A DNA stretch of 64,000 nt from a virus (taxonomy: Duplodnaviria > Caudoviricetes), in IMG/VR virus record IMGVR_UViG_3300031760_004705, positions 1 to 64,000 of that record; one strand, written 5' to 3'. The notes under the pieces are model-generated. The model did no database searches and had not been told where the DNA came from. It saw only the letters and a list, made by a program, of their open reading frames with translations. The position numbers were made by a program, and so were the translations under genes. Positions 15,498 to 37,532 of the stretch are shown here, in pieces (position 1 is the stretch's first letter; each line of letters opens with the position of its first letter).

Positions 15498-18400
15498 ATG
15501 GCGCGATTTGAGATGCATAGTCATAGTGATATGAGTAATATTCGTCTTATTGATTGCATTAATACAGTTGACTCTCTTGTTGATTATGCCATTGAAATTG
15601 GTCTTGAAGGTATTTGTTTAACTGATCATGAAGCTCTTGGCAATTGGGTTAAACTTGATCAAAAGAGACAACAAGTTCAAAAAGATCATCCAGATTTTAA
15701 GATTGGATATGGAAATGAAATTTATCTTGTGGATGAACGTGGGGCTGATAATATTCACAATAATGGTGGAAAATATTTTCACTTCATCTTAATTGCTAAA
15801 GACCCAATAGGTGCTAAGATGTTGCGGAAACTCTCTTCAAATTCTTGGATGAATAGTTATTTTGATCGTGGTATGGAGAGAGTTCCCACTCTTAAAAGTG
15901 AAGTTGAAGCCTGTATTCGAGAATTTGGTAAAGGTCATCTTATTGCATCTACTGCTTGTCTAGGTAGTGAATTAGATTATTGTATTCTTGAAATGGATAA
16001 GGCTGAAAAGCTAAATAATCTTGAAGGTAAAATAGAATATTATAATAGAATTGTTGATTTTATTGAGTGGTGTGAATATTTCTTTGGTGATGATTTTTAT
16101 CTTGAAGTACAACCTGCTCAGAGTAAAGAGCAATTAATTGTTAATAAACGTATGAAAAGTATTGCAGATTACTTTGGATTAAAAGTTGTTGTAACAACCG
16201 ACGCACATTATCTTCGTAAAGAAGATAGAGAAGTTCATAAAGCTTTTCTTAATTCTAAACAAGGTGATCGAGAAGTTGATAGTTTTTATAGTTATGCGTA
16301 TCTTCAGACAACAGAAGAAGTAATTCAAAATCTTGAAGGAACAGGTTTTGATTATTATATGCTTGAGTTGAATACTCATGAAGTAAAAAATAAGATTCAA
16401 AATTTTGGTTTTGAACATAAGCAACAGGTTCCGCAAGTTCCAGTAAAAGATTATCCTAAAGTAATGTCTAAAATGGGATATAAAACTCTTGATTATCTTT
16501 ATTCAAGTGATAATCCGCAAGAAAGATATTGGGTAAATTATTGTTGCGATAAACTTAGAGAATTAAATCTTTTTAATGATATTTATCTTGCACGACTTGA
16601 AGAAGAAGCTGATATTCAAAAAGTAATTGGAGATAAACTTGGAACTTGCATGTTCGCATATCCAATCTTTTTGCAGCATTATATTGATTCATTCTGGGAA
16701 ATTGGATCTACAGTAGGTGCGGGACGAGGTTCTGCATGTTCTGGATTGAATCATTATCTTCTTGGTATTACTCAGCTTGATCCAATTAAATATAATCTTC
16801 CTTATTGGAGATATAGTAATAAGGAACGTATTGAGCTAGGTGATATTGATATTGATATTTGTCCATCAAAGAGAGAAGAAATTTTTGCTTCAATCCGAGA
16901 AGAAGTTGGACAGCTTGGATGTGTACAGGTTTGTACATACGGCACAGAAACAACACGTTCAGCAATTTCAACTGCTTGTCGTGGTTATCGTTCAAAAGAT
17001 TTTCCTGATGGAATTGATAACGATGTAGCTCAGTATATGACAAGTCTCGCTCCAAGTGAACGAGGATTTGTTTGGCCGGTACATGATTTGGTTTATGGTA
17101 ATGAAGAGAAAGATCGTAAGCCAGTTAAAAATTTCTTGGCAGAGGTTAGAAAATATCCAGGACTTCTTGAAATTATTGAGAAGATTGAAGGATTGATTAA
17201 TCATAGAGGTATTCATGCAAGTGGCGTAAACTTTTACATGGATGATCCTTTTGATAGTGCTTGTTTTATGAAAGCGACAAGTGGAGCAATTGTAACTCAA
17301 TTTTCTCTTCATGATGCAGAGTATTGCGGCGACGTTAAATTTGATTTTCTTGTTACAGAAATTCAAGATGTAATTGTTCAATGTCTTAATATGTTAAGTG
17401 AATATAATGAAGTTGATCAACATTTGACTCTGCGACAATTATATGATAAATATCTTCATCCAGATGTTCTTCCAATAGAAGATAACAAGATATGGGATAC
17501 TCTTGCAGAAGGTAAAGTATTAAAACTTTTTCAGTTTGATAGTCAAGTTGGAAGTCAAACTGTAAAGATGTTGCGGCCAAGGTCACCACGTGAAATGGCA
17601 AACTGTAATTCTGTAATGAGATTGATGGCTGCGGAAAAGGGTGGAGAAACTCCAACTGAGAGATATAAAAGAATGAAAGATAATATGTCTCAGTGGTATG
17701 ATGAAATGCGACGATGGAGGATTTCTTCATCAGATCAAAAGATTCTTGAAAAGTATTATCTTGAAACATATGCGACGCCCGCACAGCAAGAAGATATGAT
17801 GATGATTTTGATGGATGAAGATATTTGTAATTTTAGTCTTAAAGAAGCTAATGATGCCCGCAAGATTTGTGCAAAGAAACAAATGAATCGTATTGAAGAG
17901 TTGCATGAATTGGTTTTATCAAAAGCAACTTCAAGACAGCTTGGTGAATATGTTTGGGAAACTGCAATTAAGCCGCAAATGGGATACAGTTTTAGTCTTA
18001 TTCATAGTTTGGCATATAGTTTTGTAGGACTTCAAACAATTTATCTTGCAACATATTTTGATCCTGTCTATTGGAATACTGCATGTCTTAGAGTAGATGC
18101 AGGACTTGATGAAGATGCAAGTAGTAATTATGGTAAAATTGCAAAGGCAGTAGGTAATATTATTCATCGTGGTATTCCAATGTCATTAATTGATATTAAT
18201 AAGTCTGGATATATGTTTGAGCCAGATGTAGAAACTGGTAGTATTGTATATGGACTTAAAGGATTAAATGGTGTTGGTGGAGAGATTATTCAAGAAATTA
18301 TTGAAAATCGCCCATATGAAGGATTAGTTGATTTCCAAGAGAAAGTTAAAGTTAAAAAGCCAGTTTTGATTTCATTAATTAAGAGTGGTGCATTTGATAA

Positions 18401-19340
18401 ATTTGGAAATCGAGAAGATATAATGCGGGAATACGTTTGGTCAATTTGTGAACCAAAAAAGAGAATTACATTACAAAACTTCAATGGATTAATGGAAAGA
18501 AATCTTATTCCTGCAGAATTAACATTTGAAAAAAGATTATTCGTATTTAATAAGGCTCTTAGAAAATATTGTAGAGTTAATGATTATCTTTTGGTAAATG
18601 ATAACTTCTATGATTTTTATGAAGAGTTTTTCGATGTAGATTTGCTTGAACCTTTTGAAGAAGGATTAGCAATCAAAGAAACAACATGGAAAAAAATATA
18701 TACAAAAGGTATGGATAAAGCTCGTAATTATTTTAGAGAACATCAAGATGAATTGCTAAATCAGCTTAATCAAACTTTATTTAATGAAGTTTGGAATAAA
18801 TATGCGGCTGGTACATTAGCTACATGGGAAATGGATAGTCTAGGATTTTATTATCATGATCATCCATTGAAAAATCTTGATAAGTTAAGTTATAATGTAA
18901 TTCCATACAATCAACAACCGGATACTCCGCCAGTTGAAAGAACTTTTAAACGTAATGGTATTGATATTCCATTGTTTAAAACTTGTAGAATTGTGGGCGC
19001 GGTTGTTGCAAAAGAAGATAATAAATCTTGTATTAGTATTCTAACTCCTGAAAGTGGAGTAGTTACAGTTAAAATGAGTAGAGATTATTATGCAAGATTA
19101 AATCGACAAATGAGTCAAGTTCAACCAGATGGTACTAAAAAAGTAATGGAAAAAGGTTGGTTTACTCGTGGAACATTAGTAATGGTGAACGGATTTAAAC
19201 GTTCTGGAATGTTCTTCACAAAGTCATATCGTCATACGAAATCTCATCAGTGTTATCGTATCTTGACGGGAGTAAAAAATAATGGTAAAATAGATATGAC
19301 AGCATGGAGATGGGGAGAAGAAGGTGACGATGAAAACTAA
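15498..19340 (+). CDS. dnaE: DNA polymerase III alpha subunit (family C, PHP domain)
   Basis: PHP HSHSD/TDH/TDAHY, GAGRGSA, DIDID, GIHASG, KFDFL, GYSFSLIHS; about 19 Trp, all TGG. Confidence 0.95.
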   Translation: MARFEMHSHSDMSNIRLIDCINTVDSLVDYAIEIGLEGICLTDHEALGNWVKLDQKRQQVQKDHPDFKIGYGNEIYLVDERGADNIHNNGGKYFHFILIAKDPIGAKMLRKLSSNSWMNSYFDRGMERVPTLKSEVEACIREFGKGHLIASTACLGSELDYCILEMDKAEKLNNLEGKIEYYNRIVDFIEWCEYFFGDDFYLEVQPAQSKEQLIVNKRMKSIADYFGLKVVVTTDAHYLRKEDREVHKAFLNSKQGDREVDSFYSYAYLQTTEEVIQNLEGTGFDYYMLELNTHEVKNKIQNFGFEHKQQVPQVPVKDYPKVMSKMGYKTLDYLYSSDNPQERYWVNYCCDKLRELNLFNDIYLARLEEEADIQKVIGDKLGTCMFAYPIFLQHYIDSFWEIGSTVGAGRGSACSGLNHYLLGITQLDPIKYNLPYWRYSNKERIELGDIDIDICPSKREEIFASIREEVGQLGCVQVCTYGTETTRSAISTACRGYRSKDFPDGIDNDVAQYMTSLAPSERGFVWPVHDLVYGNEEKDRKPVKNFLAEVRKYPGLLEIIEKIEGLINHRGIHASGVNFYMDDPFDSACFMKATSGAIVTQFSLHDAEYCGDVKFDFLVTEIQDVIVQCLNMLSEYNEVDQHLTLRQLYDKYLHPDVLPIEDNKIWDTLAEGKVLKLFQFDSQVGSQTVKMLRPRSPREMANCNSVMRLMAAEKGGETPTERYKRMKDNMSQWYDEMRRWRISSSDQKILEKYYLETYATPAQQEDMMMILMDEDICNFSLKEANDARKICAKKQMNRIEELHELVLSKATSRQLGEYVWETAIKPQMGYSFSLIHSLAYSFVGLQTIYLATYFDPVYWNTACLRVDAGLDEDASSNYGKIAKAVGNIIHRGIPMSLIDINKSGYMFEPDVETGSIVYGLKGLNGVGGEIIQEIIENRPYEGLVDFQEKVKVKKPVLISLIKSGAFDKFGNREDIMREYVWSICEPKKRITLQNFNGLMERNLIPAELTFEKRLFVFNKALRKYCRVNDYLLVNDNFYDFYEEFFDVDLLEPFEEGLAIKETTWKKIYTKGMDKARNYFREHQDELLNQLNQTLFNEVWNKYAAGTLATWEMDSLGFYYHDHPLKNLDKLSYNVIPYNQQPDTPPVERTFKRNGIDIPLFKTCRIVGAVVAKEDNKSCISILTPESGVVTVKMSRDYYARLNRQMSQVQPDGTKKVMEKGWFTRGTLVMVNGFKRSGMFFTKSYRHTKSHQCYRILTGVKNNGKIDMTAWRWGEEGDDEN

Positions 19341-32127: not shown

Positions 32128-32904
32128 TTATGAAATGCCAGTAACAACAGTTTTTTTAGTAACTCCGGTTACAACAGTTTTCTTTGAAATATTTGGAATT
32201 GTAAAAGCAGTACCCAAAGTTGGAGCAGATCCAACAGAAGTAACATTTGGAATAGATTTTGCAGTATAAGATAAACTTGGCAATGTACCAACTGCAGTCA
32301 CATTTGGAATTGACTTTGCTGTATAAGATAAACTTGGTAAAGTTCCAACTGCTGTAACATTTGGAATTGATTTTGCACTATATGATAAACTTGCAGCTGT
32401 GCCTGCAGTTACGGTAGCAGAAGCTCCATTTGTAACCTGGTCTTCTCCACCATTTAAAACATATTCAGGGAAAATTACTCTTTCATTTGTTGAATCATAA
32501 GTAATCTGTACTGCATTAACACCAGAGACTACTGTATTTGGAGTTACTGCAGTTGGGGTATTTGTAGTTCAACCTGTAATGTCATCCGCAGGGATTGCCG
32601 TTCCTAATGTTGGTAATGTACCTGCACTCCATGCAGTAATATCATCTGCAGGAATCGCAGTTCCAAGAGTTGGTAATGTACCTGCAGATCATGCTGTAAT
32701 ATCATCTGCGGGAATTGCTGTACCTAAAGTTGGAGCAGAACCTACAGATGTAACATTCGGTACTGTAAAAGCTGTACCAACTGTGACTGAATCGCCAGTA
32801 GTTACAGTAACAGAATCTCCTGTAGATACTGTACCATGTATTGCACTTGAATCTTTAATATTATAGGTAGTGCTACCTAATTTTATTTTTGAAACATCAG
32901 CCAA
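32128..32904 (-). CDS. Short repeat fibre with docking motif (258 aa, 2 TGA=Trp)
   Basis: VSKIKLGSTTYNIKD; 3x20-aa and 3x19-aa tandem repeats flanking a central segment; TTG start. Confidence 0.8.
32220..32395 (-). repeat. About 3 x 57-bp tandem repeat (SLSYTAKSIPNVTAVGTLP)
   Basis: ataaact anchors at 32271, 32328, 32385. Confidence 0.9.
32565..32745 (-). repeat. 3 x 60-bp tandem repeat (TLGTAIPADDITAWSAGTLP)
   Basis: Exact 60-nt period; the Trp position is TGA/TGG/TGA in the three copies. Confidence 0.9.
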
Positions 32905-34806: not shown

Positions 34807-37443
34807 CTATGCAGGAACACTAGTTGTTGCAGATGTTCCAGTAAATGTCGAAGTATAAGTCTTAGGTACTGCAATATTACCAGTAACAAGTCGTACTGCT
34901 GTACCTGTAAAGGTAGGAGCACTAACACTACCAGCAGGTGTATAACTGCCAGTAGAAGTTATCGTTGCAGCTGTACCAGTAAATGCAGGTGCAGAGTTCG
35001 TTCCAGCAGGAGTATAATCTTGAAGGACAAGTCGTTTACCTGTGCCCGTAAATGTAGGCTGAGAAACTGTTCCGGCTGGAGTATATGATCCGGTTGAAGT
35101 AATGGTTGCAGCTGTACCTGTAAATGTAGGCTGCGTAGATTGATAAGCTGCATCTCCAGTTTTAACGGTTGTATTAGATCCCTTAGTAGGTAGTGTACCA
35201 GCAGACCAACCAGAAGCAGAACCGTTAGTTGCAGTTGTAAATGACATTACTTCATTTGAAACTGAAGTTCCTGTAATAACTGTTTGATTTGTAACTGTTA
35301 AAGTAGGTAATGTTCCAACAGCAGTAATACTATTAACAGTTGTAGTTGTGCCCGCAGTTTTAACTGAAATAGTTGGGGTACTAACTGTACCAGCTGGGGT
35401 ATAAGATTTACTAACTGAAATCGTTGCAGCCGTACCACTAAATGTTGGTTGTGATACTGTACCTGCAGGAGTATATGTTGCAGTACCGCTACTTGCAGGA
35501 CTAACTGTTAAACCAGTAGCTTTTGTACCTGTAAATGTAGGTGCAGCAACACTACCTGCTGGAGTATATGATTTGCTAACTGAAATTGTAGCGGCCGTAC
35601 CTGTAAATGTTGGTGCACTATTCGTACCCGCAGGGGTATATGTGGTAGTTCCACTAGAGGCCGCACTAACTGTAGCAGTTTTATTTTCAGTTGTAGCAGT
35701 ACTAGTTGCAACCGTACCAGTTGCAGTTACAGTATGCTTATGATTTCCCTTAGCAGCAGTAGATGCCGTATTTCCAAGAGCAAGAGAAGCACTAATTTCT
35801 ACATACCCAGCAGTTGATCCACCATAACGATAAGTTTTATTTGTAGATACATCTACATAAATTTTATCTGCGGCAGCTGCAATTTCAGTAGTATGTGCAG
35901 ACTCTGCATAAAATTTATTGTTATATAAATATCCTTCTTTAATTTCATCAATTGAGCCTGGAAGGACTGATGTAGGAATTGTACCAGTTAATTTACTTGC
36001 ATTTAATGAACTAGATGAAGTTAAGAATCCTGTCACTGTATGAGTATGAGTTCCTGTTGCAGTAATATGGCCCTGAGCATCATATGTTACATAAGGTACT
36101 GCTAAAGTAGAACCACTAGTTGCAGAAGATGTACCTGCGGTTCCCGCAGTTACAGCATTAGTATGTTGAATAACTGTTCCATTTAATTTAATGCCAGTAT
36201 TAGCAGTATATGTTGTATTATTATCAGGTACGGTAACTGTACCAAGACTTTCACCATTTTTATTTTTTAAAGTAATAGTATGATCTGAAATACTAAAACT
36301 AGCTGCATAAGAAGTCTTAATATTATTACCAGATTCATCCTGAGTTGCTTTAGTCGCGGTAGATGCATTTCCATTTAAGGGACCATTAAATTGAGTAGAA
36401 GTAACTTGCGCAGGAAAACTAGCATTTTGAGAATTATCGTAGGAATATAAATGACCCTCTTTTGCCATATTAGAAGGAGTTATCCAGCCAACGCCGCCGA
36501 ATCCCATAATTCTTTGAACTGTTAAGCCATTATAATTAGTATTTCCACCATTTGCCTTAAAAATAAATCTTATACGGCCATATTGAGAACCAGCTGTATT
36601 TCCATAAGTGGCAATACCACTTGTATTAATTATATTATATCCACTTCAACCAGAGATTCCTATATCTTCTGTTTCATTTACAAAAGTTGTAGGAGTAGAT
36701 TGTAGTGCTTTTTGAATTTGTACGGTACAAGAACTACTGCCATTTGTTGAAATATAAATAACAAATTTATTTAAAACAGTATAAACAGAAGCGGCTCCTG
36801 TATCAATTGTTATTCTTAATTGATATTTATTTGTATTTGCAGTTGCTTTATTTGTGTTATCTGCTTTTCCAATTAAAAAACTTCCGCCTGTTCCAAAAAG
36901 AGTAGCATTAACGTTTGCTCCAGCTCCATAATCAGTTCAAGTTGATCCTCCGTCACGACTATATTCAATTGTTACAGAAGAGCCTTTTATAAAAGCTAAT
37001 CTATTAGCTCCTAAATTTGGAACCATTGCTGCATCAATAGGGCCATACGATGCCGCAAAATTTTTACCTCCTCAAGTTAAATAAGCTTCTGGATAACCAG
37101 TTAAAGTATGAGTATGAGTTCCAGATTTTGTGATATGTCCTTGTGAATCATAAGTAACATAAGGAATATCTATTGTCCCATTTACACTTGAGGTAGCACT
37201 TGATGCTCCTGCTGTCGCGGCAGTAACATTATTTGAATGGTTAAAAGTTGTACCCGAAAGGCTTAAACCACTACCAGCACTATATGTAGTATTATTATCT
37301 TGTTGTGTAAAGGTAAAAGTTGTACCATCTCGTCTAGTTGCTGTAAAGGTGGTACCATTTCTTGTAATATTAGCTATTGCACTTCCATCTTTAATATTAT
37401 AGCTACTATTATTAGGAAGTGTAATTTTTGAAATATCTGACAT
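34807..37443 (-). CDS. Long tail fibre with docking motif, HxH motifs and nested YTPAGT/PTFTGT repeats (878 aa, 3 TGA=Trp)
   Basis: Track ORFs 37072 and 34807 join in frame; ISKITLPNNSSYNIKD, duplicated PYVTYDxQGHITxxGTHTHTxTG, Thr/Gly/Ala repeats. Confidence 0.85.
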
Positions 37444-37490
37444 TAATATTATCACCCACCTTTAGTGTAATCACCTAATTTGTTTCATAT

Positions 37491-37532
37491 AAAATAAAAA
37501 GGGCAACTCTGTAATTATACAAAGTTGCCCTT
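37491..37532 (-). terminator. Intrinsic terminator (minus strand)
   Basis: gggcaactttgta-taat-tacagagttgccc then tttttatttt. Confidence 0.8.

Follow-up and report, generated by a model that had tools for sequence, protein, structure and literature searches.

Fibre 1, a gene on the minus strand (34807-37443) of a 64,000-nucleotide stretch of a Caudoviricetes phage genome (IMG/VR record IMGVR_UViG_3300031760_004705, positions 1 to 64,000; that whole stretch is hereafter the window), encodes a protein whose C-terminal part consists of short modules arranged in a mirrored order around a tip. The question raised by this locus is whether that mirror has a structural meaning—the chain running out through one half of the modules, turning, and coming back along itself through the other half, as a first-pass annotation of the DNA had proposed—or whether the palindrome is a by-product of the alternation of ordinary repeats. 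Our answer is that the last ~310 residues of fibre 1 probably form a fold-back stem, which reading we deduce from the sequences of the protein and its relatives. Fibre 1 has 878 amino acids plus a stop codon once the codon TGA is read as tryptophan (Trp); the residue numbers used below follow the 882-codon frame that is open to 37455, and the 878-residue protein starts from the ATG at 37443.

Translation and parsing with hidden Markov models (HMMs) indicated that the last ~300 residues read A-B-C-B, then a tip, and then B'-C'-B'-A', with seven linkers of 14 residues; the module order, the linkers, and the tip are thus present in the sequence as the first-pass annotation had described them. The seven canonical linkers, of the type (Y/F)TPxGxVxxPTF(T/S)G, begin at residues 606, 630, 661, 685, 791, 814, and 838 and score 20-45 bits on a position matrix of the family, which matrix, when applied to 122 proteins, found 765 positions above 5 bits in the real sequences versus none in shuffled ones. 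Residues 590-882 are 27% threonine. The elements of the region are listed here along with their resemblances to two other fibres of the same phage, fibre 2 (P0002) and fibre 3 (P0232), and to further relatives designated by P numbers; HxH denotes two histidines separated by one residue.

35734-35742, minus strand: HxH motif (residues 572-574) of a B-like unit, residues 569-589, at the base of the N arm
35599-35688, minus strand: N arm, module A with linker, residues 590-619 (HMM 'A', 52.7 bits)
35527-35598, minus strand: N arm, module B with linker, residues 620-643 (HMM, 41.0 bits)
35434-35526, minus strand: N arm, module C (a subtype of A) with linker, residues 644-674 (HMM and subtype pairing)
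35362-35433, minus strand: N arm, second module B, residues 675-698, whose linker turns into a conserved exit motif toward the tip
Residues 699-780: the tip as a whole
35284-35340, minus strand: outgoing side of the tip, residues 706-724 (19 residues), missing in P0003 and P0007 and resembling a C-arm module of fibre 3
35230-35283, minus strand: tip apex, residues 725-742, kept in relatives with long or short tips; proposed turn of the chain
35170-35229, minus strand: returning side of the tip, residues 743-762 (20 residues), missing in P0003 and P0007 and resembling an N-arm module of fibre 3
35116-35169, minus strand: conserved return motif and first linker of the C side, residues 763-780
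35044-35115, minus strand: C arm, module B' with linker, residues 781-804
34975-35043, minus strand: C arm, module C' with linker, residues 805-827 (HMM and subtype pairing)
34903-34974, minus strand: C arm, second module B' with linker, residues 828-851
34837-34902, minus strand: C arm, module A', residues 852-873
34810-34836, minus strand: C-terminal tail of 9 residues, a module head without linker

The returning tip segment contains W750, the sole Trp of the region. At the DNA level the module copies are 63-75% identical, with periods of 165 nt in the N arm and 141 nt in the C arm; and Tandem Repeats Finder detected no long array, but a single one of 21 nt in 2 copies. We therefore rejected the possibility that the modules are recent DNA duplications, that low identity and the lack of a long tandem array indicating instead that the modules are old and have been kept by selection on the protein.

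A palindrome within fibre 1 alone constitutes no test, because the partner assignments derive from that same sequence; hence we turned to relatives. A word-index search with residues 560-882 matched 342 proteins, of which 120 were listed, and the total of 230 metagenomic relatives was made up of two sets, one of 121 proteins and then another of 109 new representatives at 50% identity. The modules were typed by four context-free motifs that were identical on both arms—A, P (standing for A' and C'), B, and D (standing for B')—and the tip was assigned as the largest gap between module tokens. Those motifs were written after the first set had been seen; the second set alone serves as an out-of-sample test.

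Of the first set, 68/121 proteins could be tokenised, giving 48 unique architectures, among which 38 had at least two tokens per arm. In those 38 architectures the order shared between the arms amounted to 119/131 under a reverse-complement model, as opposed to 97 under a parallel-complement model, 36 under a reversal alone, and 40 under the same order. Shuffling the order of the C arm lowered the reverse-complement figure to 96.1 ± 2.9, with a maximum of 105, so that none of the 2000 shuffles reached 119; and swapping C arms between proteins lowered it to 66.3 ± 4.8. The second set, in which 34/109 proteins were tokenised and 24 architectures were usable, gave 43/52 for the reverse complement versus 31, 20, and 22 for the parallel complement, the reversal alone, and the same order, respectively, with a single shuffle in 2000 reaching 43. 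When the comparison was made per architecture (n=76), the antiparallel arrangement was the better in 27, the parallel one was the better in 3, and the two tied in 46. The two arms, moreover, had equal token counts in 33/76 architectures, a number that none of 5000 permutations attained (mean 16, maximum 28).

The four-letter motifs had replaced an earlier tokenisation in three letters by HMM, which fitted the close relatives but missed the units with variant linkers. That earlier scheme gave 52 complementary versus 3 same-type A/A' pairs in register 0, and with it the count rule held in 26/50 architectures versus 3/50. A count of permissive-linker units on each side of the tip proved too noisy and was dropped.

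The tokens of fibre 1, ABAB/DPDP (the stroke marking the tip), are an exact reverse complement, and the same is true of proteins in which the types are mixed within the arms or swapped between them: fibre 2 with PBADPBA/PDABPDA, P0020 with PBADP/ABPDA, P0037 with DAPBDA/PBDAPB, and P0032 with DADADA/PBPBPB. Module types are therefore not bound to an arm; in some relatives the N arm has B' with A, and the C arm has B with A'. That such swapped or mixed arms are still reverse-complementary shows that the choice of B versus B' is set by the module on the opposite arm, and not by the arm itself or by the flanking units. At the level of subtypes, C stood opposite C' in 7/7 instances and A opposite A' 7 times (five with A on the N arm and two reversed), never crosswise, so that the finer contention of the first-pass annotation—that C/C' and A/A' are specific partners—held in every one of those cases; the two remaining odd subtype pairs both came from one incompletely typed protein, P0027. 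As far as these sequences indicate, then, the order of the modules is neither a matter of chance nor the outcome of plain tandem repetition.

The first-pass annotation had further anticipated that modules would be gained and lost in pairs, and the close relatives did change both arms together, with P0017 and P0018 as exceptions. Among proteins 70-90% identical to fibre 1, the architectures ran from Ab/bP (P0012, P0014, P0015) and AbA/PbP (P0013), through AbAb/bPbP (fibre 1, P0005, P0006), to AbAbb/bbPbP (P0007) and AbAbAbb/bbPbPbP (P0003); that is, 2, 3, 4, 5, or 7 rungs. The tip behaved in the same manner: P0003 and P0007 have lost the 19 outgoing and the 20 returning residues together around an 18-residue apex that was kept. 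Of those two segments, 706-724 is similar to the C-arm module of fibre 3 (BLASTP E 0.004) and 743-762 to the N-arm module (E 1e-4); they make up an additional partner pair, which fibre 3 and the tip of fibre 1 have in common but carry on opposite arms. Fibre 3 itself (window 32128-32904) draws on another alphabet of modules and has three copies per arm. By eye, the out-apex-back arrangement was also seen in the tips of P0019, P0021, and P0096.

A clade sharing only 37% identity with fibre 1 includes P0019, with eight double rungs on either arm, and P0030, with five. Inspection by eye revealed that P0019 has Trp units at the third and sixth rungs counted from the tip, each faced on the other arm by a special type of partner at that rung, and that P0030 has its single Trp unit and the corresponding partner both at rung 3. 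We also noted by eye that the ~150-residue tip of P0013 contains short repeats like those at the start of fibre 3; from that tip, rungs of different module alphabets may be nested inside one another.

On these bases we propose the following scheme. The chain would run out through A-B-C-B, turn at the apex (residues 725-742), and return through B'-C'-B'-A', the C-terminus ending at the base of the stem beside the HxH motif. In 83/121 family proteins the sequence terminates in a stub of 7-14 residues beyond the last full module, and that most proteins stop so soon after that module suggests that the chain ends where the N arm begins. Each rung would comprise an outgoing module and its specific returning partner—A/A', C/C', or B/B', plus one pair within the tip. 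Type-specific partners would permit only one register for the association of the arms, and, with the register so fixed, only compensated insertions and deletions (indels) would survive; the length of the stem would accordingly change only by the addition or removal of a rung on both arms. We infer, in addition, that the two arms touch physically in antiparallel orientation and that the receptor is bound at or near the tip; the trimeric state is an assumption taken from how phage fibres are generally built. The geometry of the stem could be that of a continuous six-strand needle or of a string of small two-piece domains.

A wider proposition, to which we would give an even chance, is that the fibres of this family use a protein 'pairing code', in which complementary pairs would fix how the arms of a trimeric hairpin stem align, in the way that base pairing fixes the register of an RNA helix. 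At least five complementary module pairs can be named: A/A', C/C', B/B', the tip pair common to fibre 3, and the Trp-type unit with its partner in the P0019 clade. If such a code existed, the length of the stem and the tip would evolve by compensatory, rung-by-rung change, and a small alphabet of paired modules might be enough to build fibres whose length can be programmed.

Several observations weigh against the fold-back stem. Exact reverse complements were obtained with the regular-expression tokens in only 13/38 and 7/24 architectures of the two sets. No usable architecture came from 53/121 and 75/109 proteins, and many units of the distant members remained untyped. The sequences are related, so that the counts are not independent events and the statistics overstate the number of such events. 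Alternating patterns fit a parallel model nearly as well, hence the 46 ties. The ESM Atlas model of the homolog P0006 was poor, with a predicted template-modelling score (pTM) of 0.24 and a predicted local distance difference test (pLDDT) of 0.53, and the structural neighbours of that model were unnamed viral clusters only. Finally, the near-identical P0016, P0017, and P0018 share the same C arm but have N arms of 8, 7, and 6 units, P0017 lacking one N-arm unit and P0018 two relative to P0016; these two proteins, from contigs of ~6 kb, may be either real variants with tolerated bulges or products of repeat collapse in short-read assembly. The first-pass contention that every module pairs with a particular counterpart on the strand coming back is therefore supported by the order, the subtype pairing, the paired indels, and the balanced arm counts, with those two unbalanced relatives as exceptions.

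If, as one alternative, the region were a one-way linear shaft of beta-structured tandem repeats with a knob in mid-chain, the palindrome would be a by-product of the alternation. Units that follow one another as x-b-x-b would be expected of such a shaft, as would the tied architectures and the parallel-complement score of 97/131, and fibre 2, when written in three letters, could pass as a periodic repeat. Once four module types are distinguished, however, the informative architectures favour the antiparallel order by the 27 to 3 mentioned above; between identical flanking units one arm has B where the other has B', so that the choice is not dictated by a local repeat grammar; the paired indels affect both arms at three nested levels; and the protein ends right behind the C arm, with no distal domain. 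We consider a linear shaft improbable.

If, alternatively, the pairing were intermolecular—two extended fibres or trimers lying head to tail, so that the N arm of each would meet the C arm of its neighbour—both the reverse-complement rule and the pairing of indels would be predicted just as they are, and the sequence tests do not separate that arrangement from a hairpin. What makes us regard it as distinctly improbable is, first, that the N-terminal docking peptide of fibre 1 is like that of ten neighbouring tail genes and implies an attachment to the baseplate by one end; second, that the small conserved apex is kept even when its flanks are deleted, which retention fits a turn; and, third, that the known precedent, T4 gp37, is intrachain (PMC6957217).

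A genuine homology of fibre 1 to the T4 gp37 needle, in which HxH motifs would hold metal ions that staple the outgoing strand to the returning one, is hardly credible: a nested out-and-back topology, as deduced here, and three HxH motifs in fibre 1 would agree with it, as would the seven irons that line the gp37 needle, held by histidines (PMC6957217), but alignment with hhalign of a 36-sequence family profile against gp37 residues 811-1026 gave a probability of 0.07% over 5 aligned columns, a profile search of the PDB returned an antibody as its best match (E 0.1), and none of the 13 histidines of fibre 1 falls within residues 590-882. The HxH motifs occur in fibre 1 only at residues 114 (37108-37116), 470 (36040-36048), and 572 (35734-35742). 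The first-pass annotation had thus been right in reporting such motifs in the protein, but, none of them being in the paired arms, they furnish no argument for a metal-stapled needle; and the lack of histidines in the arms speaks against a gp37-like metal ladder.

Having weighed those alternatives, we retain the fold-back stem and turn to the family in which it would occur. An exhaustive search of the 50%-identity representatives yielded 631 proteins at E<=1e-3, 297 at E<=1e-10, and 35 at E<=1e-30. Almost no member has a name or a Pfam domain, and 'hypothetical protein' appears on 2 among the 120 matches listed. Fibre 1 is typical of this TPxGxVSxPTFTG-linker family, having the same linkers, exit and return motifs, and module types, and fibre 2 is also a member. 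Both the exit and the return motif were present in fibre 1 and in 10/12 relatives checked; by the patterns that we wrote, P0013 was without the exit motif and fibre 2 without the return motif.

Searches of Pfam and PHROGs gave no significant match for fibre 1 or fibre 2, with nothing but sub-threshold noise in Pfam, and the PDB contained no match for fibre 1 by single sequence. A tblastn search against 50,697 phage records was likewise negative, which result is weak because the low-complexity filter may hide a threonine-rich sequence. The linker and module strings were not found in a phage context among the papers listed by a text search of the literature, although a similar predicted fold could be present among the supplementary fold classes of RBPseg (PMC12143355); and a search by topic turned up nothing on paired-module fibres by title or abstract.

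The fold-back reading, if correct, matters for the reason that fibre tips decide which bacteria a phage infects, and most metagenomic fibres are without a structural or functional model. A building rule under which every outgoing module would require a returning partner is checkable, and would yield predicted topologies, from sequence alone, for hundreds of unannotated proteins; it would also explain the paired indels and suggest where tips and rungs might be exchanged in fibre engineering. The family would then illustrate, in a protein, compensatory evolution that acts on whole modules.

The extent of the gene depends on the genetic code. The phage, whose genome is a single contig of 88,423 bp, uses code 4, in which TGA specifies Trp. 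The window is poorly coding under table 11, and the open reading frames (ORFs) of at least 100 codons rise from a total of 17,783 codons to 29,599 with TGA as sense; frames of 2298, 1320, and 1224 codons arise only when TGA is so read, and an endolysin frame with 15 TGA codons matches endolysin profiles across residues 3-418. In three copies of one repeat of fibre 3, furthermore, the same Trp position is encoded as TGA, TGG, and TGA, which usage demonstrates the reading of TGA as Trp within the window itself.

At the fibre 1 locus the standard-code ORF is of 566 amino acids (34807-36507, minus strand) and covers only the C-terminal part of the gene; under table 4 the frame is open over 34807-37455, with three in-frame TGA codons (W128, W173, and W270), of which W128 causes standard-code gene calling to split fibre 1. 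The first-pass annotation, whose description corresponded to the last 317 codons of fibre 1, had taken that standard-code ORF as the gene, and this boundary was wrong, since the frame continues past the 566 amino acids to a protein of 878. The start is likely the ATG at 37443, located 9 nt after an AGGTGG ribosome-binding box. The remaining features of the gene are these:

34807-37443, minus strand: full coding sequence of fibre 1, with TGA read as Trp and the likely start ATG at 37443 behind the AGGTGG box
37384-37443, minus strand: N-terminal docking-type peptide, with which fibre 2, fibre 3, and full-length homologs likewise begin
37072-37074, 36937-36939, and 36646-36648, minus strand: in-frame TGA codons of W128, W173, and W270, respectively

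A public protein collection holds, as P0004, the 566-amino-acid standard-code truncation of the fibre 1 gene at 100% identity, and the presence of that entry suggests that family members from TGA-recoded phages are systematically cut in the databases—a reminder that standard-code gene calling interrupts such fibre genes at TGA. ARAGORN found no tRNA or tmRNA gene on the whole 88,423-bp genome; with no suppressor tRNA of its own, and with late genes full of TGA codons for Trp, the phage must rely on the host for the reading of TGA. The TGA-containing frames are concentrated in the minus-strand late or structural half of the window (24000-64000 versus 1-24000), and several long early genes contain no TGA at all, e.g., the frame of 1280 amino acids at 15498-19340.

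The genes around fibre 1 are tail-like; among them are a very long frame upstream, large proteins that match uncharacterised PHROGs, and the endolysin, along with a small downstream protein that matches tail and host-range families. Those neighbours, the docking-type N-terminus shared with other fibres, and the use of TGA for Trp identify fibre 1 as an 878-amino-acid tail fibre of a code-4 phage. A G+C-rich hairpin with a run of T behind it (37490-37530, minus strand), located after the fibre 2 stop codon and before the fibre 1 ribosome-binding site, looks like an intrinsic terminator inside the array of fibre genes.

Within the rest of fibre 1, as judged by eye, a segment of ~68 residues is present twice (~53-120 and ~403-470; window 36046-37296, minus strand), each copy ending in a THTHT-type HxH motif. 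By eye, the insert of ~280 residues between the two copies holds all three TGA codons, and P0012 and similar relatives have a single copy of the segment and no such insert.

Needles of the T4 gp37 type are homotrimers that need the dedicated chaperones gp38 and gp57A. In gp37 (PMC6957217), residues 811-881 and 1010-1026 form a collar, residues 882-931 and 960-1009 a stem, and residues 932-959 the tip, which tip is inserted in the stem as the stem is in the collar; and T4-like needle tips are recognised as a class of fibres in a recent structural atlas (PMC12143355). Fibre 1 would be alike in its nested out-and-back course—from the base through the N arm to the tip and along the C arm again, with the C-terminus back at the base—and HxH motifs occur in both proteins. 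Unlike gp37, fibre 1 has arms made up of repeated modules of at least three to four complementary types, with a number of rungs that varies among relatives; and its phage, which reads TGA as Trp, is not one of a T4-type host. The likeness to gp37 that the first-pass annotation had invoked would accordingly be one of topology, with neither profile similarity nor histidines in the arms to extend it further. To our knowledge, arms with a variable number of rungs and complementary modules have not been described for gp37.

One-way trimeric beta-repeat shafts provide the other comparison, T4 gp5C being a one-way triple beta-helix with an octapeptide repeat (PMC3004832). Such shafts and fibre 1 have in common short units rich in threonine, serine, and glycine, presumably beta-structured, in a phage tail protein; but the shafts proceed in one direction with a single type of repeat and nothing that would demand paired indels, whereas fibre 1 has two arms with complementary types in mirrored order. 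Within its own linker-repeat family, finally, the members vary in the number of rungs, the type carried by each arm, the tip insert, and the N-terminal domains. What is new here, to judge from the sequences compared, is a putative stem built from repeats, with several complementary types of module and a variable number of rungs, in a large and unnamed family.

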